Assembly: GCA_964575175.1 (NCBI GenBank)
Contig: CAZNPX010000006.1
Location: 28,578-92,577 of the forward strand
From: an uncultured Hyphomicrobiales bacterium
Lineage (GTDB): Bacteria > Pseudomonadota > Alphaproteobacteria > Rhizobiales > Xanthobacteraceae
Reading direction: 5' to 3'
Length of the DNA stretch: 64,000 nt
This document shows positions 29,037 through 41,188 of the stretch, piece after piece. The notes beneath the pieces are model-generated. The model was not told where the DNA came from and ran no database searches. It saw only the letters and a list, made by a program, of their open reading frames with translations. Every line of letters begins with the position of its first letter. The first letter of the stretch is position 1. The position numbers and the translations under genes are program-made.

Positions 29037-30428
29037 TCAGACCGCGTGCGAATGGCGGGTCTGCCGTTCCTCCAGATAGCGGTCGAATATGCTCGCGACG
29101 ATCCGGGCGAAGGGCCTGCCCCGATCCGTCACCTCGATCCGCCGCCCGAGCCGGCGGACCAGTCCCTGCGTCGCCAGCAGATCCACTTTGGCAAGCTCGC
29201 GCGAGAAGATCGTCGGCAGGCGGTGCTTCAGGACGAGCTTGTCGATGTCCACGCGGAAGCTGCACATGATGCGCTCGATGATCTCGGCGCGGAGCAGGTC
29301 CTCCCGGCTCAGCACGGCGCCGCGTATGGTCGCGAGCTTGCCGTAGCGAATTTCCGCGGAGTACGCCGCGGCGGCCGGATGATTCTGCGCGTAGCCTTGC
29401 GGCAGGCGGCTGATCGCGGAAGCGCCGAGCCCGATCAGCGCGGGGCTGTCGTCGTCGGTGTAGCCCTGAAAATTCCGGTGCAGCGTGCCGCGCCCGGCCG
29501 CGCTCGCAAGATTATCGCCGGGCAACACATAATGATCGATGCCGACCGGCACGTATCCGAGTTCGAGCCATGCCTGCGCCGCCGTCAGCGCCTGCCGGTA
29601 GCGCTCCTCCGCGTCCGGCAGGGTGCGGACGTCGATCAGGGTCTGCTGCTTCTTGAACCACGGAACATGCGCGTAGCCGAACACCGCGACGCGCTGCGGC
29701 CGAAAGCGCGCGGCCAGGGTCGCGCTGAAGCGGATGTCCTCGACGGTCTGCTTCGGCAGGCCGTACATCAGGTCGATGCCGATATTGCCGATGCCGTTCC
29801 TTTCGAGCACCTTCACCGCGGCCTCGACAAGCTCGAACGGCTGCACGCGGCCGATTGCCTGCTGCACTTCGGCGGAAAATTCCTGCACGCCGAGATTTGC
29901 GCGATTGATGCCGATTGCGGCCAGCGTCTCGACGAGGCCGCCATCGAGCCGCCGCGGATCGAGTTCGATCGCGTGTTCGTTCAGCGTGGAGAGATCGAAG
30001 CTGCGCGCGAGTGCGCGGAAAATCTGTTGCAGCCCATCGACGCCGACGATGGACGGGGTTCCGCCGCCCCAGTGAATCCGCCGGACCTTCCTGCTGCCGG
30101 AAAGCCGCGCGAGCAGCGAGATTTCGGTAATCAGGTCGCGGACGTAATGCTCGACGGGCTCCATGCGCCGCGTCGCATGCGTATTGCATCCGCAATAATG
30201 ACAGAGCTCCCGGCAGAACGGCACATGCAGATAGAGCGACAGCCCTGCCTGCGACGGGATCGCCGCAAGCCAGCCTGCATAAACTTCAGGGGTAACCGTG
30301 GCCGCGAAGTTCGGCGCGGTCGGATAGGATGTGTAACGCGGTACCGCCCGCTCAGCGAACGGATCGCCGGGCTGCGCCGGTCCCGCGGCCGGCGCATCAC
30401 GCGGCAGATCGGTGTCCGGCTTCACCAT
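29037..30428 (-). CDS. hemN: oxygen-independent coproporphyrinogen III oxidase
   Basis: 463-aa ORF with PRYTSYPTAP N-terminus and radical-SAM CRELCHYCGC motif. Confidence 0.9.
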   Translation of the reverse strand: MVKPDTDLPRDAPAAGPAQPGDPFAERAVPRYTSYPTAPNFAATVTPEVYAGWLAAIPSQAGLSLYLHVPFCRELCHYCGCNTHATRRMEPVEHYVRDLITEISLLARLSGSRKVRRIHWGGGTPSIVGVDGLQQIFRALARSFDLSTLNEHAIELDPRRLDGGLVETLAAIGINRANLGVQEFSAEVQQAIGRVQPFELVEAAVKVLERNGIGNIGIDLMYGLPKQTVEDIRFSATLAARFRPQRVAVFGYAHVPWFKKQQTLIDVRTLPDAEERYRQALTAAQAWLELGYVPVGIDHYVLPGDNLASAAGRGTLHRNFQGYTDDDSPALIGLGASAISRLPQGYAQNHPAAAAYSAEIRYGKLATIRGAVLSREDLLRAEIIERIMCSFRVDIDKLVLKHRLPTIFSRELAKVDLLATQGLVRRLGRRIEVTDRGRPFARIVASIFDRYLEERQTRHSHAV

Positions 30429-30446: not shown

Positions 30447-31133
30447 TCAGATCCACGCCGGCAAAGGCTCGAGCGCCAGATTGTCCTTGACCGACCTGAC
30501 GCCGGGGGTGCCCTCGATCGCGATGCGGACGGCGCTGCGTTCGGCTTCCGAGCGCACCAGTCCCCACAGGTGGACCACGCCGCCGCTTACGGTGACGTTC
30601 AGCATGGTCACGTTGGTCCAGCGCTCGGCTTCCAGCCGGTTCTGGATGTTGCGGCGGACTTCCTCGTCGCTGAGCATCTGCCGCTCGTCCTGCGGCGCCG
30701 TCGCAATCGCCTGCACCAGATTGGCGCGCGTGACGATGCCGACCAGCTTTCCGGCCTCGATCACCGGGACGCGCTTGATGTTGCGGCTCTCGAACAGGTT
30801 GGCGATCTCGGACAGCGGCGTATCCGGCACGACGGCAACGATATCGCGCGTCATGAGGTCCTTCACCTGCGTCGCGTGCGAGCGGGCATATTGCTGCGCG
30901 AGCTCGATGTTACCGGCGAAGAAGGAAAGCCACGAGCGCCGCGGCGCCTCCGTGCCGATTTCGGCACGGCGGATCAGGTCGCCCTCGCTGACGATGCCGA
31001 TGACGTTGCCGGCATCGTCGACGATGGGAAGCGCGCTGATATGGTTTTCGGTGAGGATTTTCGCGACGTCGCGGACGGTCATATCCGCCTTTCCGGTTTT
31101 CACCGGGGAGACCATTACGTGCCGGGCTCTCAT
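30447..31133 (-). CDS. CBS-pair + BON domain protein
   Basis: Start reset to ATG 31133. Two CBS repeats (VMVSPV...ISALPIVDDAGNVIGIVSEGDL; LMTRDIVAV...IKRVPVIEAGKLVGIVTRANL) and a C-terminal BON-like segment (VTVSGGVVHLWGLVRSEAERSAV). Confidence 0.8.
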   Translation of the reverse strand: MRARHVMVSPVKTGKADMTVRDVAKILTENHISALPIVDDAGNVIGIVSEGDLIRRAEIGTEAPRRSWLSFFAGNIELAQQYARSHATQVKDLMTRDIVAVVPDTPLSEIANLFESRNIKRVPVIEAGKLVGIVTRANLVQAIATAPQDERQMLSDEEVRRNIQNRLEAERWTNVTMLNVTVSGGVVHLWGLVRSEAERSAVRIAIEGTPGVRSVKDNLALEPLPAWI

Positions 31134-31144
31134 GGCTGCCTCCG

Positions 31145-31849
31145 TCAGGAGTTGAGGTTGCGAAGTGCTGCGCGATTCTTCAGCCGGACCTTGCGCGAGC
31201 TCGGCAATTCGATGACCGCCTTGCGCTCGAAGCTGGAGAACGTCCGCGAGATCGTCTCGATGGTAAGACCGAGGTAATCGGCAATATCCTGCCGCGACAT
31301 CGGCAGATCGAATTCGTTGCGGTTGACGGAGCGATCCGCCATTTCGACGAGGAAGGACGCGACGCGCTCCTGCGCGCTCGAGCGGCCGAGCAGAACCATC
31401 TGATCGTGGACGTGATCGAGCTCGCGCGCTGTCATCTCCCACAGCTCGCGGGCAACCGTCGCATCGGTTTGCGCGAGCGCCGCCAGCGTCGAGCGCTTCA
31501 TCGCGATCACCACGGTGTCGGCCATGGCTTCGGCGGAGAAGCGGTGATTTCCGCCCGAGCCCAGGCCGAAAATATCGCCCGGCAGATAGAACGCGCCGAT
31601 CTGCCGGCGGCCGTCGTCGAGAAGCTTGTAGGTGCGGACCGAGCCGCTCTGGATTCTGTAGACGTACTCGGCCTCCTCGCCCTGCCCGTAGATTTCCTCG
31701 TTGCGGGCGTAGTTGAGCTTCAAGCCCATGAGCTCGAGCGAGTTCCGGAAACCCTGCTCCCGGAGGACGCCGTTCGCGGTCTTCGGGACGCTGCGCGGCA
31801 CGGCGTAAGCCGACGCCGGATGGGAGACTTGCGTGGCCTGAGCGAGCAT
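31145..31849 (-). CDS. fixK: Crp/Fnr family regulator, FixK type
   Basis: cNMP-binding-like barrel plus C-terminal HTH ([22 protein letters not shown]). No N-terminal Cys cluster, so not Fnr. Divergent from fixLJ. Confidence 0.85.
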
Positions 31850-31974: not shown

Positions 31975-33471
31975 ATGAAGGTGCCCGAGGCTATAAAAAA
32001 CGGTGCAAGGCGGCTGTGGTCGCTGGACCTGACGATGCAGAGCCCGTGGTCGCGCTATGCCGCGGTGATTCCGGTCGTCGCCGCCGCGCTCGCGGTCCGC
32101 GCGAGCCTGCAACCGCTGATCGGCAACGAAGCGCTCTTTCTTCTCTTCGTTCCCGCCGCGCTGGCGGCGGCCATGATCGGCGGCTTCGGGCCGGGCGTCG
32201 CGGCGACGCTGCTCAGCTTTGCGGTCGGCTACATCTTCTTTCTCGGACAGAGCGCTCCCGCCGCGCACCTCGTCTCCAACAGCATCGCCTTCGTGGCTTC
32301 GGGAATCGCAATCGCGGCCTTCGGCGGCTGGACCCGGACCACGCGGCGGGCGGCGGCGGCGCGCGAAGCGCACCTGAACTCGATTCTCGATACCGTTCCC
32401 GACGCGATGATCGTGATCGACAGCAAGGGCATGATCCAGTCCTTCAGCGCCGCCGCCGAGCGCCTGTTCGGATACAGGGCCGCCGAAGTCCGCGGCGGCA
32501 ATGTCAGCGTGCTGATGCCCACGCCCTATCGCGAGGCGCATGACGGCTATCTGGAAAAATACCTGCGCACCGGCGAGCGCCGGATCATCGGCATCGGCCG
32601 CGTCGTCGTGGGCGAGCGCAAGGACGGCTCGACATTCCCCATGGAGCTTGCGGTCGGCGAAATGATCTCCGGCAAGGAGCAATATTTCACCGGCTTCGTC
32701 CGCGACCTGACCGAGCGCCAGGAAACCGACGCCCGGCTGCAGGAGTTGCAGGCGGAGCTGGTCCACATCTCGCGCCTGTCGGCCATGGGCGAAATGGCCT
32801 CCACGCTCGCGCACGAGCTCAACCAGCCGCTCACCGCCATCGCCAACTACATGAAAGGCTCGAGCCGCATCGTCAGCGAGCTGGAATCGGATCGCGCGCC
32901 GATGCTGAAATCCGCGCTGGACAAATCCGCCGAACAGGCGGTGCGCGCCGGGCAGATCATCCGCAGGCTCCGCGATTTCGTCGCCCGCGGCGAGAGCGAG
33001 CGCAGCATCGACAGCCTCTCCAAAATCATCGAGGAAGCCAGCGCGCTGGCGCTGGTGGGGGCGAAGGAATCCGGCATCCATGTCCGCATGCGGCTCGACC
33101 CCGACGGCGACCTCGCCTTCGTGGACCGGATCCAGATCCAGCAGGTGCTCCTGAATCTCATCCGGAACGCCATCGACGCGATGATGCAGAGCCCGCGCAA
33201 GGAGCTCTCGATCCTGAAGCACGCGCCGGTCGACGGGATGGTGGTCATCACCGTCTCCGACACCGGACCGGGCATCGATCCCGACATTCGCGGGCAACTG
33301 TTCCAGCCGTTCGTGACCACGAAATCGGACGGCATGGGGGTCGGCCTTTCCATCTCCCGCACCATCATCGACGCGCATGGCGGCAAGCTATGGGTGGACG
33401 ACAATGCCGATGGCGGCGCGTCCTTCCGCTTCAGCCTGCCGGTCGCGCATGGCAGCAAGAGCAAAGAGTAA
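31975..33471 (+). CDS. fixL: oxygen sensor histidine kinase FixL (with membrane N-terminal domain)
   Basis: Heme-PAS signature [43 protein letters not shown]-box [20 protein letters not shown]1 and G2 boxes present. ATG 31975 preferred over GTG 31870. Confidence 0.9.
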
Positions 33472-33476
33472 AGAGA

Positions 33477-34097
33477 ATGTCCGAGAAGCAGACCGTCCAT
33501 GTGATCGACGACGACGACGCGGCCCGCGATTCGCTGCAATTCCTGCTGGAGACCGCAGGACTGCAGGCGCGGACCTACGAGACGGCGGCGGCGTTCCTGA
33601 AGGAGCTGCCGGCGACGGCCTCGGGTTGCGTCATCACCGACGTGCGGATGCCGGGCATGACCGGGATCGACCTGCTGAAGACCCTGAAGGCGCGGGCCTT
33701 TCCGCTGCCCGTCATCGTCATCACCGGGCACGGCGACATTCCGCTCGCCGTCGAGGCCATGCGCGAGGGGGCCTCGGACTTCCTCGAAAAGCCCTATGAC
33801 GACGAGGCGCTGCTGCAATCGATCTCCCGCGCGGTGGCCTCGTCGAAATCCGCAGCCAATGCGGACGACGAAAAGGCCGACATCCTGCGCCGGGTCGCGG
33901 CGCTTTCCGGGCGCGAGGCGGAAGTGATGACGGGCCTGATCGCGGGCAAATCCAACAAGGTCATCGCCATCGACCTCGAAATCAGCCCCCGCACCGTCGA
34001 AATCTACCGCGCCAACGTGATGTCCAAAATGGGGGCGGACAGCCTGCCGGCCCTCGTCCGCATGGCGATCGTCGCCGGGGTTCCCGAAAGCCGCTGA
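33477..34097 (+). CDS. fixJ: response regulator FixJ (receiver + LuxR-type HTH)
   Basis: Start reset to ATG 33477. Receiver (VHVIDDDDA...DVRMPGMTG...KP) plus LuxR HTH (LSGREAEVMTGLIAGKSNKVIAIDLEISPRTVEIYRANVMSKM). Confidence 0.9.
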   Translation: MSEKQTVHVIDDDDAARDSLQFLLETAGLQARTYETAAAFLKELPATASGCVITDVRMPGMTGIDLLKTLKARAFPLPVIVITGHGDIPLAVEAMREGASDFLEKPYDDEALLQSISRAVASSKSAANADDEKADILRRVAALSGREAEVMTGLIAGKSNKVIAIDLEISPRTVEIYRANVMSKMGADSLPALVRMAIVAGVPESR

Positions 34098-34103
34098 TCC
34101 GGC

Positions 34104-34117
34104 TTGCGCCAGATCAA
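34104..34117. promoter_or_regulatory. FixK-type box TTGCGCCAGATCAA
   Basis: Matches the Bradyrhizobium FixK2 consensus TTG(A/C)-N6-(T/G)CAA. Its centre is 41.5 bp upstream of position ~34152, coincident with ATG 34151. Confidence 0.5.
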
Positions 34118-34150
34118 GGCGCGTACACCGGGACCGGCGCATCATGAAGG

Positions 34151-34603
34151 ATGCCCCCGGCGTCCGTAAAAAAATCCCGATCCGTCCGCATGGCGCCGCG
34201 CAGCACGCGCTCGAAAGGCGTGGTGTTCATCGTCGACGACGATGCGGCGGTGCTGACCTCGCTCCAGTTCGCGCTCGAAATGGAGGGCTACACCGTGCAC
34301 GCTTTTTCCGACGCCAAGGGCCTGCTCGGGCTGCATCACATCGAGCGCCAGGCCTCGCTCGTGATCGACTACCGGCTGCCCGACACCAACGGGCTCGACC
34401 TCGTGCAGCGGCTCCGGGCAAAGGGCGTGACCGCGCCCGCGCTCATCATCACGAGCCATCCCGGCCCGGACCTGAAACGGCGCGCGGCCATGCTCGCGGT
34501 GCCGATCCTGGAAAAGCCCCTGCTCGACAATTCCCTGATCGCGGCGATCCGCGAGCAGCACGAAAGCCCTGCCGCGGGCATGATGAAGCCCGCGAAGAAG
34601 TGA
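34151..34603 (+). CDS. single-domain response regulator (receiver only)
   Basis: Receiver residues present (DDD, VIDYRLPD, ITSH, EKP); no output domain. Start is either ATG 34151 (would be leaderless given the box position) or ATG 34190. Confidence 0.8.
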   Translation: MPPASVKKSRSVRMAPRSTRSKGVVFIVDDDAAVLTSLQFALEMEGYTVHAFSDAKGLLGLHHIERQASLVIDYRLPDTNGLDLVQRLRAKGVTAPALIITSHPGPDLKRRAAMLAVPILEKPLLDNSLIAAIREQHESPAAGMMKPAKK

Positions 34604-34657
34604 TTGTGGTGCCGCGTCGGTTCCGCGTGGCGCGGATCCGGAACGCGCGGCAAAAAT

Positions 34658-34686
34658 AAAAAAGCCCCGGCTGCCGGGGCTTTTTC
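34658..34686. terminator. bidirectional rho-independent terminator
   Basis: AAAAAAGCCCCGG-CTG-CCGGGGCTTTTT: perfect 7-bp GC stem flanked by an A-run and a T-run. Serves the receiver gene (+) and the small ORF (-). Confidence 0.85.
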
Positions 34687-34694
34687 TTTTGGCG

Positions 34695-34719
34695 TTTCTT
34701 TCGTGTCTTTTCTTTCGTG
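34695..34719. repeat. tandem direct repeat, 2 x TTTCTTTCGTG with 14-nt period
   Basis: Read directly. Lies between the small-ORF stop and the terminator. Function unknown. Confidence 0.5.
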
Positions 34720-34732
34720 CCCCGCCGCAGGA

Positions 34733-34840
34733 CTAGCTGCGGAATTGCCGGGTCTGGCGCTCGGCCCAATACAGCCCGCCCATGAACACAAGAAAGAGAA
34801 GCGTGACGAAGACGAGGACGGCAATGGCTTCGAGAGGCAT
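34733..34840 (-). CDS. unannotated 35-aa single-TM peptide (MPLEAIAVLVFVTLLFLVFMGGLYWAERQTRQFRS)
   Basis: Hand-translated; below the 60-aa cutoff of the ORF track. GGAGA SD 6 nt before the ATG, FixK-type box 58 bp upstream, strong terminator 47 nt after the TAG. Confidence 0.55.
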   Translation of the reverse strand: MPLEAIAVLVFVTLLFLVFMGGLYWAERQTRQFRS

Positions 34841-34891
34841 GACGTTTCTCCGTTATCGGGAGAAACATGCTTCAGCCGCGAACGCCGCTCC

Positions 34892-34905
34892 TTGATCTGC
34901 CGCAA
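34892..34905. promoter_or_regulatory. FixK-type box TTGATCTGCCGCAA
   Basis: Matches TTG(A/C)-N6-(T/G)CAA. The centre predicts a minus-strand TSS near 34857, giving a ~16-nt leader with the SD of the 35-codon ORF. Confidence 0.5.
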
Positions 34906-34961
34906 AGCGCGCAAGGGCTTGCGGCGCGCTTCCTCTTGTTACTCTTTGTGTGCTGCCGCGC

Positions 34962-35639
34962 TTATTTCGCCGCCGCGCCGATGCCGGTGATTTTCAGGCC
35001 CGCATCCGGCACCTTATACTTGCGGTTGATCCAGATCAGCACCGAGGTCAGGCTTTCCGCGACGACGGAATTCGCCAGCGGGCCGGCGTCGACCCCGTTC
35101 AGCCCGGCGTCGCCGGCAAGGCCGATCGCGACTTCCCGCGCATCCTTGTCGTCGCAAGCCACGAGCACGTCGCAGTCGATCTTGTGATCGAGCTCCTTGA
35201 GCTTGTGCGCCGAGACGTTCTGGAAGGCGGAAACCACGCGGGTCTGCTCGCCGAGCAGCTTCTGCACGGCGACGACGCACGAATCCGATTCCGGCAACTG
35301 CACCTGCGAAACCTTCGGCGGCACCAGCGGCACCGTGACGTCGATCAGGATTTTTCCGGCGAGCACGTCCTTCAGCCCTTCGACCGTCGGCTTCTGCGCG
35401 GAAAAGGGAACGGTGAGGACGACGATGTCGGCCGCGCTGACGCCGCTGCGGCTGTCCATGGCCTCGACGTTCTGCTTGCCGGTGAGCGCGTTCAGCGCGT
35501 CCGCGGTGGCCTTGGCCTTGCTCACGTCGCGCGAGCCGATAATGACGCGATGACCTTTCACCGCCCAGCGCGCGCCGAGGCCGCTCCCCTCCGCGCCGGT
35601 TCCGCCGACGATGCAGATCGTTTTCACTTCCACGCTCAC
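34962..35639 (-). CDS. npdG: NADPH-dependent F420 reductase (F420:NADP+ oxidoreductase, NpdG/Fno type)
   Basis: ICIVGGTGAEGSGLGARWAVKGHRVIIGSRD Rossmann N-terminus and overall NpdG/Fno layout. GTG 35639 is preceded by GGAGG inside the fbiC 3' end and lies 1 nt after the fbiC stop. Confidence 0.8.
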   Translation of the reverse strand: MSVEVKTICIVGGTGAEGSGLGARWAVKGHRVIIGSRDVSKAKATADALNALTGKQNVEAMDSRSGVSAADIVVLTVPFSAQKPTVEGLKDVLAGKILIDVTVPLVPPKVSQVQLPESDSCVVAVQKLLGEQTRVVSAFQNVSAHKLKELDHKIDCDVLVACDDKDAREVAIGLAGDAGLNGVDAGPLANSVVAESLTSVLIWINRKYKVPDAGLKITGIGAAAK

Positions 35640-35640
35640 G

Positions 35641-38046
35641 CTAACCTCCAACTTCCATTACGGCTCTTTCCGCAGAGCCTTTGCGTTTTCCGACGAAGGG
35701 ATCGAGCACCAGATCCGTCAGCGCTGCCGCGCCGAAGCTCCTGCCGCGGCGCTCGACGGCGACCTCGCCGTAAAGCGTGGTGCGCTGCGCCGGCGTTCTT
35801 CCGATCGAGGAGACGAGCCGCTCCATGTTCTCGGGGCTCAATTCCTGACCGTGCTGCGTGCCCGCGGCGCGCGAAATGCTTTCGTTCATCAAGGTGCCGC
35901 CGAGATCGTTCGCGCCGCCGTTGAGCAAGCTAGCGGCCCCCTCCGCGCCGACCTTCACCCACGACGCCTGGATGTTTCCGATCAGCGGATTGAAGACGAG
36001 CCTTGCGATCGCGTGCAGCAGGCGCACTTCGCGCCAGGTCGGCCCCTGCCGCGCCTGCCCGCGAAGCGACATCGGCGCTTCCATGTGCACGAAGGGCAGC
36101 GGCACGAATTCGGTGATGCCGCCGGTCCGCTGCTGCAAGTCGCGCAGCGCAAGCAGATGGCGCGCCCAGCTTATCGGGGCTTCCACATGCCCGAACATGA
36201 TCGTCGATGTGGTCGGCAGCCCGCAGCGATGCGCGGCTTCGATGACCGCGAGCCACTCGGCGGCGTCGAGCTTGTCAGGGCAGATTATCTGCCGGATGCC
36301 GTCGTCGAGAATCTCCGCGGCCGTTCCCGGCAGCGATCCCAGACCCTCGTCGCGAAGCATGCCGAGAAAGCGCGCGACCGGAATTCCGAGCGTGGCCGCG
36401 CCCTGCGATATTTCGAGCGGCGAGAAGGCATGGACATGCATCCCCGGCACTTCGTTCTTCACCGCGCGCACCAGATCGATATAGGTCTGGCCGGTGTAAT
36501 GCGGGTTGATGCCGCCCTGCATGCAGACTTCGGTCGCGCCGCGGCCCCATGCCTCGCGCGCGCGCCGCGCCACTTCGCCGAGCGAAATGTCGTAAGGCTT
36601 GCCGCGAAGATGGTCGTGGCTCTTGCCCTTCGAGAACGCGCAGAAGCTGCAGCGGTAGAGGCAGACGTTGGTGTAGTTGATGTTCCGGTTGACGACGTAG
36701 CGGACCATGTCGCCGCTCACGCGACGGCGCAGCTCGTCGGCCGCGGAAACGATCTCGGCGACGCCGGTATCCCGCGCGCCGAACAGCTTCACGATCTCCG
36801 CGTGGGCAAGCCGTTCTCCGGCCTGCGCGCGGTCGAGCAACTTGTCGTAGCTGCCCGGCGCTCCGCCGCTCACCGACGGCGACGGGATCGGTTCCAGCGA
36901 GCCGGGCGACCACGCCTCTTCGCGCGCGAAGCCTTCGCTGTCCGACAATTGCACCAGCTTCGAGAAGGGCTCCGCATCGAACCATTCGCGTTCGAGCGCG
37001 AAACGCGGATAGGCGGCAAGCCGCGGCACGAGCGAGAAGCCGGCCTGCTCCGTCATCGCGCGCAGCTTCGGGATCGCGGGCCACGCGGCTTCGGGATTTA
37101 CGTGATCCACCGTTACCGGGGAGATGCCGCCCCAGTCGTTGATGCCGGCATCGAGCAGGCGCGGATAGTCGGCGTAGCTCAGGTTCGGCGGCACCTGGAT
37201 GTTCATTTCGGCGCCGAAGACGAGGCGCGTGACGGCCGCGGTCCACAACAGATCGTCGAAGCTCGGCTCCTCCGACAGCGCGAGACGGGTGCCGGGCTTG
37301 GCGCGGAAATTCTGGACGATGATTTCCTGGATGTGGCCGTATTGCGCGTGCAGATCGCGCAGCGCGAGCAGCGATTGCACGCGCTCCAGCCGGGTTTCGC
37401 CGATGCCGATGAGAATGCCGCTGGTGAACGGCACCTTCTGCCGCCCGGCCGCGGCGATCATCTCGACACGAACCGCGGGGTCCTTGTCGGGCGAACCGAA
37501 ATGCGCGCCGCCGCGCTCGCACAGCCGCGGCGAAATCGTCTCCAGCATGATGCCTTGCGATACGCTGACGCGCCGCAGCCGCGCGATCTCTTCTTCCTCC
37601 ATCACGCCGGCGTTGACGTGAGGCAACAGCGTCGTGTTGCGCAGGACCAGTTCGCACACCGCCTCGAGATAGGCGTGGGTCGAGGCGTATCCCAAGGCGT
37701 CGAGCGCCTCGCGGGCCGCCGCATAGCGAAGCTCGGGCTTGTCGCCGAGCGTGAAGAGCGCTTCGGTGCAGCCCGCCGCCTCGCCCCTGCGCGCGATCTC
37801 CAGCACTTCATCGGGAGAGAGGTAGGCGCGCTTCAGCCGCTTCGGCGTTTTCGCGAAGGTGCAGTAGCCGCAGGTATCGCGGCACAACTGCGTGAGCGGT
37901 ATGAACACTTTGCGGGAATAGGAAATATTGGTGCCGTGGCCCTCGACCCGGAGCCGCGCCGCGCGCGCAAGCAGCGCCGCCAGCGGAAGGCTCTCGAATT
38001 TCGCCAGCAATTGCTCCGGCGTACAGGCTTCGAATTCCACGCTCAT
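35641..38046 (-). CDS. fbiC: bifunctional FO synthase FbiC (CofG+CofH fusion; 7,8-didemethyl-8-hydroxy-5-deazariboflavin synthase)
   Basis: 801-aa ORF with two radical-SAM motifs (CRDTCGYCTF and CLYRCSFCAF) in tandem CofG-like and CofH-like halves. Confidence 0.93.
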   Translation of the reverse strand: MSVEFEACTPEQLLAKFESLPLAALLARAARLRVEGHGTNISYSRKVFIPLTQLCRDTCGYCTFAKTPKRLKRAYLSPDEVLEIARRGEAAGCTEALFTLGDKPELRYAAAREALDALGYASTHAYLEAVCELVLRNTTLLPHVNAGVMEEEEIARLRRVSVSQGIMLETISPRLCERGGAHFGSPDKDPAVRVEMIAAAGRQKVPFTSGILIGIGETRLERVQSLLALRDLHAQYGHIQEIIVQNFRAKPGTRLALSEEPSFDDLLWTAAVTRLVFGAEMNIQVPPNLSYADYPRLLDAGINDWGGISPVTVDHVNPEAAWPAIPKLRAMTEQAGFSLVPRLAAYPRFALEREWFDAEPFSKLVQLSDSEGFAREEAWSPGSLEPIPSPSVSGGAPGSYDKLLDRAQAGERLAHAEIVKLFGARDTGVAEIVSAADELRRRVSGDMVRYVVNRNINYTNVCLYRCSFCAFSKGKSHDHLRGKPYDISLGEVARRAREAWGRGATEVCMQGGINPHYTGQTYIDLVRAVKNEVPGMHVHAFSPLEISQGAATLGIPVARFLGMLRDEGLGSLPGTAAEILDDGIRQIICPDKLDAAEWLAVIEAAHRCGLPTTSTIMFGHVEAPISWARHLLALRDLQQRTGGITEFVPLPFVHMEAPMSLRGQARQGPTWREVRLLHAIARLVFNPLIGNIQASWVKVGAEGAASLLNGGANDLGGTLMNESISRAAGTQHGQELSPENMERLVSSIGRTPAQRTTLYGEVAVERRGRSFGAAALTDLVLDPFVGKRKGSAERAVMEVGG

Positions 38047-38128: not shown

Positions 38129-38767
38129 TCACTCGACACGATCGCTCGGTCCCGTCGCCACGTCCGCGACATTGCGCATCGAATAGATCTCTCCAAGGCC
38201 GGCGTAATTGGGGCCGCCGATCCGGCACAACGGGCGGAGCTGCCGCGTGTCGATCTTGTTGTTCTCGCACAAGCCGTCGCGAACGTGAAACATCAATACT
38301 TCGCCGACCAGGAATTTCGAGCCGGTCTCGCCGAATGCGATGTCGTGCCGCAGCGCGCATTCCATACTGATCGGGGCCGCCGCAAGCCGCGGGACCGGGA
38401 CGCGATCGCTCGGCGCGGTTTCCAGATCGAGCAGCGTGGTTTCGCTGACGTCGTAGGGATGCGCGACCGCGCTGAGGTGAACCTTTTCGACCATGGTTTC
38501 GTCGCCGATGTTCACCACGAAACTCTTCCCTTCGAGAATATTCCGGGCGGTGTCCTTCTGCTCGCCGCTGCGAAGCCCGACATTGATCCCGATCATCGGC
38601 GGCTTCGACGAGACGAAGGTGAAGCAACTGAACGGAGCCAGATTGACGATTCCGGCAGCCGACAGCGTCGTCACCCAGGCGATCGGGCGCGGCACCACCA
38701 TTCCCGTCAGCAGCCGGTAAATGTCCTGGGGCGGCATCGGGGCCGGATTGATTTTCATTGCTCGCAT
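38129..38767 (-). CDS. flavin reductase-like (FMN-binding split-barrel) domain protein
   Basis: 212-aa ORF with LLTGMVVPRPIAWVTTLSAAGIVNLAPFSCFTFVSSKPPMIGINV, typical of the flavin-reductase-like domain. Sits directly upstream of fbiC. Confidence 0.8.
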   Translation of the reverse strand: MRAMKINPAPMPPQDIYRLLTGMVVPRPIAWVTTLSAAGIVNLAPFSCFTFVSSKPPMIGINVGLRSGEQKDTARNILEGKSFVVNIGDETMVEKVHLSAVAHPYDVSETTLLDLETAPSDRVPVPRLAAAPISMECALRHDIAFGETGSKFLVGEVLMFHVRDGLCENNKIDTRQLRPLCRIGGPNYAGLGEIYSMRNVADVATGPSDRVE

Positions 38768-38803: not shown

Positions 38804-39607
38804 TCAGGCCACCGACATCTTTTGCCGATCGGAATTCCCGAAAGGCGGCGCCGGCAGCGCGCCCTGCTTGCTCGAAATGATTCCGGCGCAACGCTCGGTG
38901 ACGATCTGCATGTGCTTGTAGAAGTTCTTGTCGTGGCCCTGCTTGTGAATGGCGGAGCTGAGCGCGGCGACGACATCGCCGGAGGCGTCCCGGATCGGGC
39001 AGCCGACGGCATAGATATCGACGAGATTCTCCTCGTCGGAGATCGAGTATCCGCGCTTCAGGACATTCCGCAGGTCGGCCACCAGCGAGCGGGTGTTGAT
39101 GATGCTGTAGGGGGTCAGGCGATTGAGCGAAAGCCGCGGCAACAGCTTCTGCAACTCGGCATCGTTCATCGCCGCGAGCAGGACCTTGCCGGCGGCGGTG
39201 GTATGCAGCTGCCCGGTCACGCCCGTGTTGATGCGCAGCACATACGGCTGCGCGCCCTGGATTGCGTACAGGTACAGCATGACGTTGTCGGAGCGCACGC
39301 AAAGATAGACGTTCAGCCCCTCGCTTTCGGCGAGCTGGTGCAGGTCGTCGTAGCAGGCGTTGTAGAGCGGGTTCGAGCGCGTGTATTTCTGGCCGATCTC
39401 GAAGGTGGTCGGCCCGACGCGGTATCGGCGGGTGGCCGGGTTCTGCTCGAGAAAACCGTCCTCGGCCAATGTCAGCAGCAGGCGCGACGCCTTGCTCTTA
39501 TCGAGCGAAAGCAGGCGGGCGACTTCGCGAACACCAAGCTCGGGACCATGCTCGGCAATGGTCTTCAGAATTTTCAGCCCGTGAGATAGCGACTGATTGA
39601 TTGCCAT
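38804..39607 (-). CDS. IclR family transcriptional regulator
   Basis: N-terminal wHTH (LKILKTIAEHGPELGVREVARLLSLDKSKASRLLLTL) plus an IclR effector domain. Confidence 0.85.
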   Translation of the reverse strand: MAINQSLSHGLKILKTIAEHGPELGVREVARLLSLDKSKASRLLLTLAEDGFLEQNPATRRYRVGPTTFEIGQKYTRSNPLYNACYDDLHQLAESEGLNVYLCVRSDNVMLYLYAIQGAQPYVLRINTGVTGQLHTTAAGKVLLAAMNDAELQKLLPRLSLNRLTPYSIINTRSLVADLRNVLKRGYSISDEENLVDIYAVGCPIRDASGDVVAALSSAIHKQGHDKNFYKHMQIVTERCAGIISSKQGALPAPPFGNSDRQKMSVA

Positions 39608-40408: not shown

Positions 40409-41188
40409 TCAATGCATCGCGGAGCTGGCGCCGAGCATCTGCCGGAGCTTGTTGGCGATCGCGCCGAATTCGGGGCTTGCCAGCGTTTCCAGCGTGCGCG
40501 GCCTCGGGATGTTCACGGGCACTTCCAGGATCTTCGTTCCCGGCCGTCCCGACAGTACGACGATCTTGTCCGCGAGGAACACCGCTTCGGGAATCGAATG
40601 CGTGATGAAGATCACCGTCTTGCGGGTGTTGAGCCAGATCGATTGCAGCTCGATGGTCATGCGCTCGCGCGTCAGCGCATCCAGCGCCGCGAAGGGCTCG
40701 TCCATCAGCAGCACCGCCGGATCGTGAATGAGCCCGCGGGCGATGCCCGCGCGCTGCTGCATGCCGCCCGAAAGCTCGCGCGGAAGATGATCGGCGAACT
40801 TGCTCAAGCCGACCAGCTCCAGCAGCTCGCGCGCCCTCGGCACATATTTCGCCGTGGACTGCCCGAGCGCGCGGATCGGCACCAGCACGTTCTCGATCAC
40901 CGTCTTCCATGGCAGCAGCGTGGGCTGCTGGAAGACGATGCCGACATCCGAGCGCGGGCCGACGATGGGCGACGCCGAGAGCTTGGCGACGCCGGACGCC
41001 ACCGGCATCAGGCCGCTCACCACCCGCAGCAGGGTCGATTTTCCGCAGCCGGACGAGCCGATCACGGCGACGAACTCGCCCTTGGCGACGGTGAGATCGA
41101 GGTTTTGCAGGGCCATCAGCGGTCCCTGCGTCGTCTGGTACACGACGGAGACACCGCTGATGTCGAGCGTAGGCACTTCGTTTCGCAT
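40409..41188 (-). CDS. ABC transporter ATP-binding protein
   Basis: Walker A GSSGCGKST, signature LSGGMQQR, Walker B LLLMDEPFAALD. Confidence 0.9.
   Translation of the reverse strand: MRNEVPTLDISGVSVVYQTTQGPLMALQNLDLTVAKGEFVAVIGSSGCGKSTLLRVVSGLMPVASGVAKLSASPIVGPRSDVGIVFQQPTLLPWKTVIENVLVPIRALGQSTAKYVPRARELLELVGLSKFADHLPRELSGGMQQRAGIARGLIHDPAVLLMDEPFAALDALTRERMTIELQSIWLNTRKTVIFITHSIPEAVFLADKIVVLSGRPGTKILEVPVNIPRPRTLETLASPEFGAIANKLRQMLGASSAMH

Follow-up and report, generated by a model that had tools for sequence, protein, structure and literature searches.

The stretch analysed here, hereafter the window, comprises 64,000 nucleotides (64.5% G+C) of contig CAZNPX010000006.1 (assembly GCA_964575175.1, positions 28,578 to 92,577 of the forward strand) from an uncultured Hyphomicrobiales bacterium. 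On its minus strand, between a fixLJ cluster and the F420 genes npdG and fbiC, the region 34905..34658 constitutes a self-contained gene, monocistronic, whose product, an inner-membrane protein of 35 residues that crosses the membrane once, belongs to a rare, unnamed family. The reading favoured here is that this gene is activated by a FixK-type regulator and that its product has a membrane component of the micro-oxic machinery as partner; the whole statement is given a probability of about 0.6.

Read 5' to 3' on the minus strand, the locus begins with a FixK/FNR-type box, TTGCGGCAGATCAA (34905..34892; TTGATCTGCCGCAA in the plus-strand reading), whose centre (34898.5) lies 58 nt 5' of the ATG. 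The box fits TTG(A/C)-N6-(T/G)CAA, that is to say, the palindrome of a FixK/FNR-type promoter. It is followed, at a distance of 22 nt, by the hexamer CATGTT (34869..34864), picked out as -10-like by reading the sequence, and by a transcription start site (TSS) predicted by arithmetic (box centre minus 41.5) at 34856..34857, which would leave a 5' untranslated region (UTR) of some 16-17 nt. Next come a Shine-Dalgarno (SD) sequence, GGAGA (34851..34847), a 6-nt spacer (AACGTC) and the start codon (ATG, 34840..34838). The coding sequence (34733..34840) consists of 35 codons plus TAG (34735..34733), and its product is MPLEAIAVLVFVTLLFLVFMGGLYWAERQTRQFRS. A preliminary description of this DNA had already reported the box (34892..34905), a start near 34857 calculated with the same spacing, and the SD sequence, spacer and frame from ATG to TAG, all of which are found at the same coordinates.

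The 3' UTR contains two copies of CACGAAAGAAA (TTTCTTTCGTG on the plus strand), at 34695..34705 and 34709..34719, and an intrinsic terminator (34686..34658), the stem of which has 13 pairs, 7 of them G-C, and encloses a loop of 3 nt, with T-runs on both strands. The terminator had been noticed before at this very place; what has to be corrected is that it works in both directions, as it is common to the peptide gene (-) and to the convergent gene of a receiver-only response regulator (RR) on the plus strand, whose stop lies at 34603. Likewise, the two 11-mers do exist within 34695..34719, but the term tandem repeat, which had been applied to them, is not strictly correct: 3 nt separate the copies (period 14) and Tandem Repeats Finder reports nothing. 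Since they are absent from the loci of relatives and resemble a local duplication, the 11-mers were rejected as a functional element and are probably without function. Two other assignments were also discarded: (i) a leader peptide or upstream open reading frame (ORF), because the terminator and the convergent gene follow the peptide gene; and (ii) a promoter element of npdG, as the box is located downstream of npdG. Rfam, searched at E <= 1 over 34000-35600, returned sub-threshold terminator-like matches only, all of them overlapping the terminator region.

Regarding the reading frame, the gene was called unannotated in the preliminary description and it does lie below the 60-aa cut-off of the ORF track employed there; nevertheless, the exact 35-aa product is already present in a public protein collection (sources, NCBI and Logan), a gene caller having predicted the same protein on a metagenome contig. 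As a direct query of 35 aa is short, the alignment was padded with five X residues for word-index searches, purely as a search device. An exhaustive phmmer search over 1.84 billion representatives retrieved three homologues, all of 35 aa; with three successive profile searches, the count rose to 9, 15 and finally 23 clusters out of 5.8 billion, almost every member being exactly 35 aa long. When public collections were scanned, one locus was recovered from GTDB species genomes, a set of representatives that lacks the window's own genome, and two from JGI metagenomes; tblastn against 72,556 plasmids found no match. It is a rare family, restricted to a small number of lineages that are mostly uncultured, and every member is labelled as a hypothetical protein.

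The family consensus is MPFExIVVLxFVxLxFAVFAxGLxWADYQTREFRD, with M1, L9, F16, F19, A26 and Q29 invariant, E4, T30, R31, F33 and R34 nearly invariant, and a highly conserved polar tail (W-A-[DE]-x-Q-T-R-x-F-R). Distant members (33-49 aa) retain MP.E...FA.FA.GLAWA..QT and have an altered tail. One related locus (L026, 8001..8108, member P0016) carries the tail WASHQMHHFHE, in which the conserved Arg and Thr are replaced, and still has the box, the hairpin described below, a terminator and the fixLJ context; this tail may reflect drift or a changed function.

Among nine distinct genes, variable sites at the first, second and third codon positions number 23, 17 and 34 of 35, respectively. The pN values range from 0.09 to 0.36 versus 0.41-1.0 for pS, with synonymous differences at or near saturation, and dN/dS is 0.03-0.48 where dS is unsaturated; the other five frames contain stops in most loci. 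Conservation of the frame with a synonymous bias had been proposed as a check, and this is what is observed, together with a fixed length of 35 codons. On this pattern of substitutions, the ORF can be taken, with hardly any doubt, as a real protein-coding gene under purifying selection. It could be argued that the frame is open by accident, in intergenic DNA rich in G+C, and that the box is a chance match too, given that the box pattern alone is not enriched in the window and that many spurious ORFs overlap the region. But length, frame and sequence are conserved over about 23 clusters, with synonymous-biased substitutions, and the position of the box is conserved at every locus read (see below); selection, box position and homologue clusters exclude such an accident computationally, and its likelihood is regarded as negligible.

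The family has no counterpart in the databases consulted. In Pfam, no family was found for the 14 members scanned: there were weak matches to four different families, which were rejected as homology and attributed to chance similarity between transmembrane (TM) segments, because each family was matched by one member only. One of these, CoxIIa (PF08113), reached 12.5 bits against a cut-off of 20.7 (E = 0.13, 1 of 14 members). NCBIfam gave no match to the peptide, and a profile search of PDB chains returned PsbH only, at a meaningless E = 1.4, and no bd-oxidase subunit. In the literature search, no paper contained the tail motif and none was found linking FixK to such a peptide. Thus, the family is unnamed and undescribed, its kind being well known: small single-pass proteins of low-oxygen regulons.

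In the window considered alone, the box does not stand out from chance, in agreement with the caution expressed when it was first noticed: the degenerate pattern has 5 matches versus 3.25 expected, a value reached by 23 of 100 shuffles, and TTG-N8-CAA has 11 matches versus 8.6 expected. Therefore, the decision had to rest on relatives. To this end, 12 distinct loci were read, i.e. the window and the related loci carrying family members (L-numbers, L002-L026) L002, L003, L005, L008/11, L015, L017, L018, L019, L020, L023 and L026. All 12 have a TTG-N8-CAA box, its right half being ATCAA or GTCAA, with the centre 57-62 nt 5' of the ATG; as estimated from shuffles, a box would occur in that range with a probability of about 0.0007-0.0018 per locus. 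When the loci are aligned on the box, information content is present only at TTG..(A/G)TCAA and at the SD sequence (GGAG[GA], found in every locus read), the remainder being unalignable. A position weight matrix (PWM) built from the family boxes assigns its two best scores in the window to the box of the RR gene (34104..34117) and then to that of the peptide gene. In this respect, a box position conserved across promoters that cannot otherwise be aligned can validate a regulatory site which is non-significant in one genome.

The spacing is shared with neighbouring genes. In most relatives, the upstream gene is divergent and encodes a protein here termed unk116 (110-142 aa, starting with M[SG]F[IV]PQ and without a Pfam family; for instance, L005 5505..5855, L011 7519..7851 and L018 736..1068), beyond which lies an Usp gene. 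The unk116 gene has a box of its own, at 55-61 nt from the start codon, and its class II position is occupied by clean -10 hexamers (TATGAT, TACGAT, TAATCA). The boxes of the peptide gene and unk116 are mirror images placed 28-35 bp apart; in L018, one box is common to both genes. Within these same loci, the genes for unk116, the CBS-BON protein, unk128, Usp and an ADP-forming acyl-CoA synthetase have boxes 55.5-61.5 nt from their starts, as illustrated by L011, where those of CBS-BON, unk128 and Usp are 58-62 nt away; the cydA box is located at about 76 nt upstream in L021 and L005.

In Bradyrhizobium, FixK2 recognizes the consensus TTG(A/C)-N6-(T/G)CAA, and the nosR TSS is 40.5 bp from the box axis (PMC5582078). 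The promoters described here resemble the FixK2 class II promoters in their box consensus and in a spacing that permits a centre near -41 with a short leader (PMC5582078). By contrast, they carry a conserved inverted repeat that spans the predicted start. The model with the best support would be a class II promoter whose start is near 34857/34856, some 16 nt ahead of the ATG, because the box spacing equals that of the local FixK-box genes and the FixK2 geometry. The regulator encoded in the window at 31145..31849 carries the E--SR recognition motif (ETISR) expected of a cognate protein; it has no N-terminal Cys cluster and is therefore FixK-like rather than FnrN-like. Taken together, FixK-type activation of the peptide gene appears very probable from the conserved promoter architecture, and micro-oxic, FixK-dependent expression is inferred from this same promoter anatomy.

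Contigs from three probable RNA runs, which come from a close relative of L005 (about 96% identical over the stretch covered), cover positions 6001-6479 of L005 only, that is, the peptide gene plus about 370 nt downstream, antisense to a 199-aa gene; they start at the ATG, with no coverage upstream of it or over cydX. The variant that they encode, MTFESILVLALVALIFGAFAVGLAWADYQIREFRD, has nine differing sites, six of them third positions, and an intact frame. That these contigs begin at the ATG weakly favours a short leader. A query restricted to RNA runs, made for a relative, returned no match.

Four observations weigh against FixK activation from a class II start: (i) the -10-like hexamers of the peptide promoters are weak; (ii) the sequencing runs that contain the window are of metagenome DNA only, which bears on expression; (iii) the RNA-run contigs carry no strand information and could represent the 3' end of a convergent gene; and (iv) the 5' arm of a conserved RNA hairpin lies upstream of the class II-predicted TSS, so that the simple model leaves this hairpin unexplained.

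The hairpin, which goes beyond the preliminary description, is formed in the window by AUGUUUCUCC-CGAUAAC-GGAGAAACGU (34842..34868, minus strand), a stretch which contains, as DNA, the inverted repeat GTTTCTCC-CGATAAC-GGAGAAAC (34866..34844). At all 12 loci, positions -36 to +3 fold, at minimum energy, into a hairpin in which the SD sequence is paired with a pyrimidine tract. In the window, it has a stability of -12.7 kcal/mol, and 1.3% of shuffles are as stable (0-11% across loci); Fisher p amounts to 6e-10 when the 12 loci are taken together and to 7e-5 when seven well-separated lineages are used. The evidence consists only of the folds of single sequences and their shuffles: RNAalifold, given a MAFFT alignment of the leaders, yields no consensus structure, because the register of the stem shifts between loci. 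The divergent unk116 leader has no similar hairpin. To our knowledge, no inverted repeat across the start site has been described for FixK promoters.

The sequence of the outer stem varies from lineage to lineage, and some of these stems require G-U pairs (e.g. L018), which points to a hairpin that acts by RNA pairing. Yet the predicted class II start falls in the hairpin loop, and the 5' arm coincides with -10/discriminator DNA, so that a transcript from the FixK promoter would lack this arm. Three readings of this arrangement are possible: (i) the anti-SD arm silences read-through and pervasive transcripts, so that only the mRNA started by FixK would be translated; (ii) the true start lies upstream and the box acts in a different manner; and (iii) the palindrome acts at the DNA level. 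If real, an anti-SD arm placed in -10/discriminator DNA would be a way to tie translation to promoter choice.

The second of these readings can be developed into a full alternative, in which the box is not a class II activator site: the transcript would start upstream of the hairpin, the box would lie near -25 to -30 or within the leader, and control would be mainly translational, through opening of the hairpin. The retention of the hairpin in all loci with a lineage-specific outer stem speaks for it, and so do the G-U pairs, which indicate pairing of RNA and not of DNA. But no -35/-10 pair for such a start occurs between the box and the hairpin, and the distance from box to ATG equals that of neighbouring FixK-box genes that have a clean -10 hexamer and no hairpin. 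Besides, the RNA contigs of the relative do not reach upstream of the ATG, and the divergent upstream gene of most loci leaves little room for another promoter. An upstream start is accordingly considered improbable, and the class II model is retained in what follows.

Concerning the protein, the mean Kyte-Doolittle hydropathy is 2.57 over residues 5-24 and -1.98 in the tail, and AlphaFold2, run on a 14-member alignment, predicts one continuous helix (residues 3-34, pLDDT 94). The peptide had been described as a membrane peptide with one hydrophobic helix and a polar tail, and both hydropathy and model agree with that view. There are no Lys or Arg residues before the helix and two to three Arg residues after it. 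In consequence, an N-out/C-in topology is predicted, since the Arg residues occur only after the helix. The peptide shows both traits looked for in a single-pass small inner-membrane protein, namely a hydrophobic stretch of about 20 residues in helical form and basic residues confined to one flank. Conservation shows helical periodicity (p = 0.044), which weakly suggests that the helix has one binding face.

As for gene order, the peptide gene is convergent, in every locus, with the last gene of a co-directional string, of which two forms can be distinguished: (i) fixL-fixJ-RR (window, L003/4, L008/9, L011-14, L017, L018, L019 and L026); and (ii) fixL-fixJ-RR-cydD-cydC-cydA-cydB-cydX, complete in L020-24 and partly visible in L015/16, L005 and L002. 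Hence the second feature that goes beyond the preliminary description, i.e. linkage to cydABX in relatives. In L002, L015/16 and L020-25, the peptide gene and cydX are tail-to-tail neighbours, and in L005 a single gene (unk199) separates them; next to the peptide gene in L002, L005, L015 and L020-25, a genuine, Pfam-recognized CydX is encoded. G+C-rich terminators separate the peptide gene from cydX in L002, L015 and L023, and terminators made of a hairpin and a T-run follow the peptide gene in L005, L008 and L026. Both string forms occur within each sequence subgroup, the window pairing with L002, and L005 with the L008 group. Most simply, the long string would be ancestral, with at least two events in which the cyd block was lost or moved. 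None of the neighbourhoods seen contained fixNOQP or fixGHIS genes. In L020-L024 (e.g. L021 8183..16108), FixK-type boxes precede the RR gene and cydA, and, on the other side, the genes of an assimilatory nitrate/nitrite reductase cluster (nirB-like, nasA, cysG) run up to the peptide gene.

The mechanism proposed would proceed as follows. Under low oxygen, FixL would phosphorylate FixJ, which would then induce fixK; FixK would bind the box as a class II activator, with its centre near -41.5, and RNA polymerase would start about 16 nt before the ATG, giving a short leader that carries the SD sequence. The peptide would insert N-out/C-in, and its conserved helix face and cytoplasmic tail would be the surfaces with which it binds a membrane component of the micro-oxic machinery.

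Cytochrome bd oxidase is the preferred partner, in a tentative manner and with the odds still somewhat against it, on the grounds of gene position and precedent: the gene adjoins cydX in three lineages, cydA is preceded by a box, and there is the precedent of YnhF/CydY. The peptide would then be an accessory subunit or an assembly factor of the oxidase, in the manner of that protein. YnhF/CydY (CydH) has a single TM helix, is made under low oxygen, is encoded outside the cyd operon and constitutes the fourth subunit of Escherichia coli bd-I (PMC6853902). The likeness lies in its size of about 30 aa, its one TM helix, which packs against CydA, and its stand-alone low-oxygen gene (PMC6853902). 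The peptide gene is similarly stand-alone and has the box of a low-oxygen regulator, in addition to its place beside cydX in three lineages; the two proteins differ in that there is no sequence similarity between them and in that the association with bd oxidase derives here from gene position only. The tail W-A-D-x-Q-T-R-x-F-R is not known to be a feature of CydY.

Two other groups of small proteins come close in kind. CydX (PF08173, YbgT_YccB) is also a small single-TM protein tied to cydAB, but the peptide has no PF08173 match and is encoded on the opposite strand under its own promoter. FixQ/CcoQ and FixS/CcoS are small as well, span the membrane once and come from FixK regulons, their helix being followed by a Trp-Ala plus basic motif, and a loose resemblance to CcoQ had been suggested for the peptide; however, hmmscan of the 14 members at E <= 1 gave no match to FixQ (PF05545) or FixS (PF03597), nor to the CydX family, in any of them, which leaves the resemblance unsupported.

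Against bd oxidase as partner, it must be considered that in about half of the loci, the window among them, the gene stands beside the RR gene with no cyd genes in view. In the window itself there is no cydAB: in tblastn searches with CydA, CydB, CydX and the unnamed neighbour proteins, the RR alone matched. Furthermore, the peptide shows no sequence similarity to CydX, CydY or any PDB chain.

The first of these facts leads to the main rival, in which the partner is the membrane-anchored FixL and the peptide is a FixK-induced feedback modulator whose tail would contact FixL near the membrane. There would then be two feedback arms, the peptide and the FixT-like receiver protein, whose genes stand tail-to-tail. 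MgrB, an enterobacterial membrane peptide that inhibits PhoQ and is induced by the adjacent-acting two-component pathway, offers a functional analogy only, as a small membrane peptide whose gene is induced by the pathway on which it would act. In form (i) loci, the gene is immediately convergent with the RR-fixJ-fixL operon, and the cyd-containing loci keep fixL-fixJ-RR in the same string wherever the DNA reaches (L020-24). Every FixL seen has a DUF4118 membrane domain, that of the window being recognized by its hydrophobic N-terminus; the most conserved part of the peptide is its predicted cytoplasmic tail, on the side of the FixL PAS and kinase domains; and the adjoining RR gene has a FixK-type box as well, which fits a feedback module. 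Nevertheless, adjacency to fixLJ may simply reflect a dense island of the FixK regulon (L011 has at least eight intergenic boxes in 16 kb), and three lineages have five cyd genes interposed between the RR gene and that of the peptide. Moreover, the peptide is homologous neither to MgrB nor to any other kinase modulator known, and the conserved part of MgrB is periplasmic, whereas that of the peptide is predicted to be cytoplasmic. FixL is, in short, a rather unlikely partner. Similarly speculative, and likewise rather unlikely, is the joint proposal that the peptide is a new component of the FixLJ-FixK circuit, either as a fourth bd-oxidase subunit that tunes oxygen access or as an MgrB-like brake on FixL, its translation being made promoter-dependent by the anti-SD arm.

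Finally, the peptide might have no partner of this sort and be a type I toxin-like, membrane-perturbing peptide, silenced by the 5' hairpin, that lowers membrane potential or growth under oxygen limitation. Its small, hydrophobic, stand-alone ORF, the sequestered SD sequence and the narrow taxonomic range would suit such a peptide, as would control by a stress regulator, for which tisB, controlled by LexA, provides a parallel. The conserved polar tail and helix face suggest, on the contrary, a specific partner, and the fixLJ/cyd synteny is stable across lineages; in addition, the gene is single-copy, with no paralogue found in the window, and no conserved antisense promoter was seen, although no systematic search was made. 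A toxin-like role is very improbable, and docking onto a membrane component of the micro-oxic machinery is preferred to it.

Small membrane proteins are routinely missed, and several of them are essential parts of oxidases (CydX, CydY, CcoQ, CcoM) or brakes on kinases (MgrB). Conserved, clearly delimited, provided with a FixK box and fixed at the end of the fixLJ/cydABX cluster, the peptide gene is a concrete candidate for a component still missing from micro-oxic respiration or oxygen signalling in a group of mostly uncultured Hyphomicrobiales-like bacteria. The finding is unsurprising in kind, and its wider impact is moderate because the family is rare.

With respect to the neighbourhood, gene identities were taken from Pfam and NCBIfam matches together with ORF translations, and they bear out the setting first described, with fixK, fixL, fixJ and the receiver-only RR gene on one side and npdG and fbiC on the other. 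On the minus strand are hemN (29037..30428), the gene for a CBS-BON protein (30447..31442 for the ORF as listed, the 5' part of which overlaps fixK) and the fixK-type CRP/FNR regulator gene (31145..31849), whose product has cNMP_binding, HTH_Crp_2 and Crp domains. They are followed, on the plus strand, by fixL (ending at 33471), fixJ (33474..34097) and the RR gene (34151..34603). The RR is FixT-like by position, its NCBIfam FixT score being 33 bits against a cut-off of 150. Its promoter box, TTGCGCCAGATCAA (34104..34117, plus strand), begins 6 nt past the fixJ stop and is the top PWM score of the window. CATCAT is found exactly 22 nt past this box, CATGTT occupying the equivalent place in the peptide promoter. 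As the TSS predicted for the RR gene (about 34152-34154) falls at its first ATG (34151), the true start codon may be the ATG at 34190.

Beyond the peptide gene, the minus strand carries npdG (34962..35651; stop, 34964..34962), fbiC (35641..38046), a flavin reductase gene (38129..38767) and the gene for an IclR regulator (38804..39607). In the stretch examined, no FixK box was found ahead of npdG/fbiC. The third- and fourth-best PWM matches of the window are two near-consensus FixK-type boxes, TTGATCCAGATCAG (35026..35039), within the 3' end of npdG and 192 nt 5' of the peptide ATG, and TTGAGCCAGATCGA (40629..40642). Between the npdG stop and the box of the peptide gene, and abutting the latter, there is an inverted repeat, AAGCGCGC-N11-GCGCGCTT (34931..34905, minus strand), which may act as a weak terminator or insulator for the co-directional upstream gene; in L002, a comparable perfect 9-bp hairpin ends at the box. 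The F420 genes npdG and fbiC (34962..38046, minus strand) adjoin the fixLJ-fixK-hemN island in this alphaproteobacterial metagenome-assembled genome.

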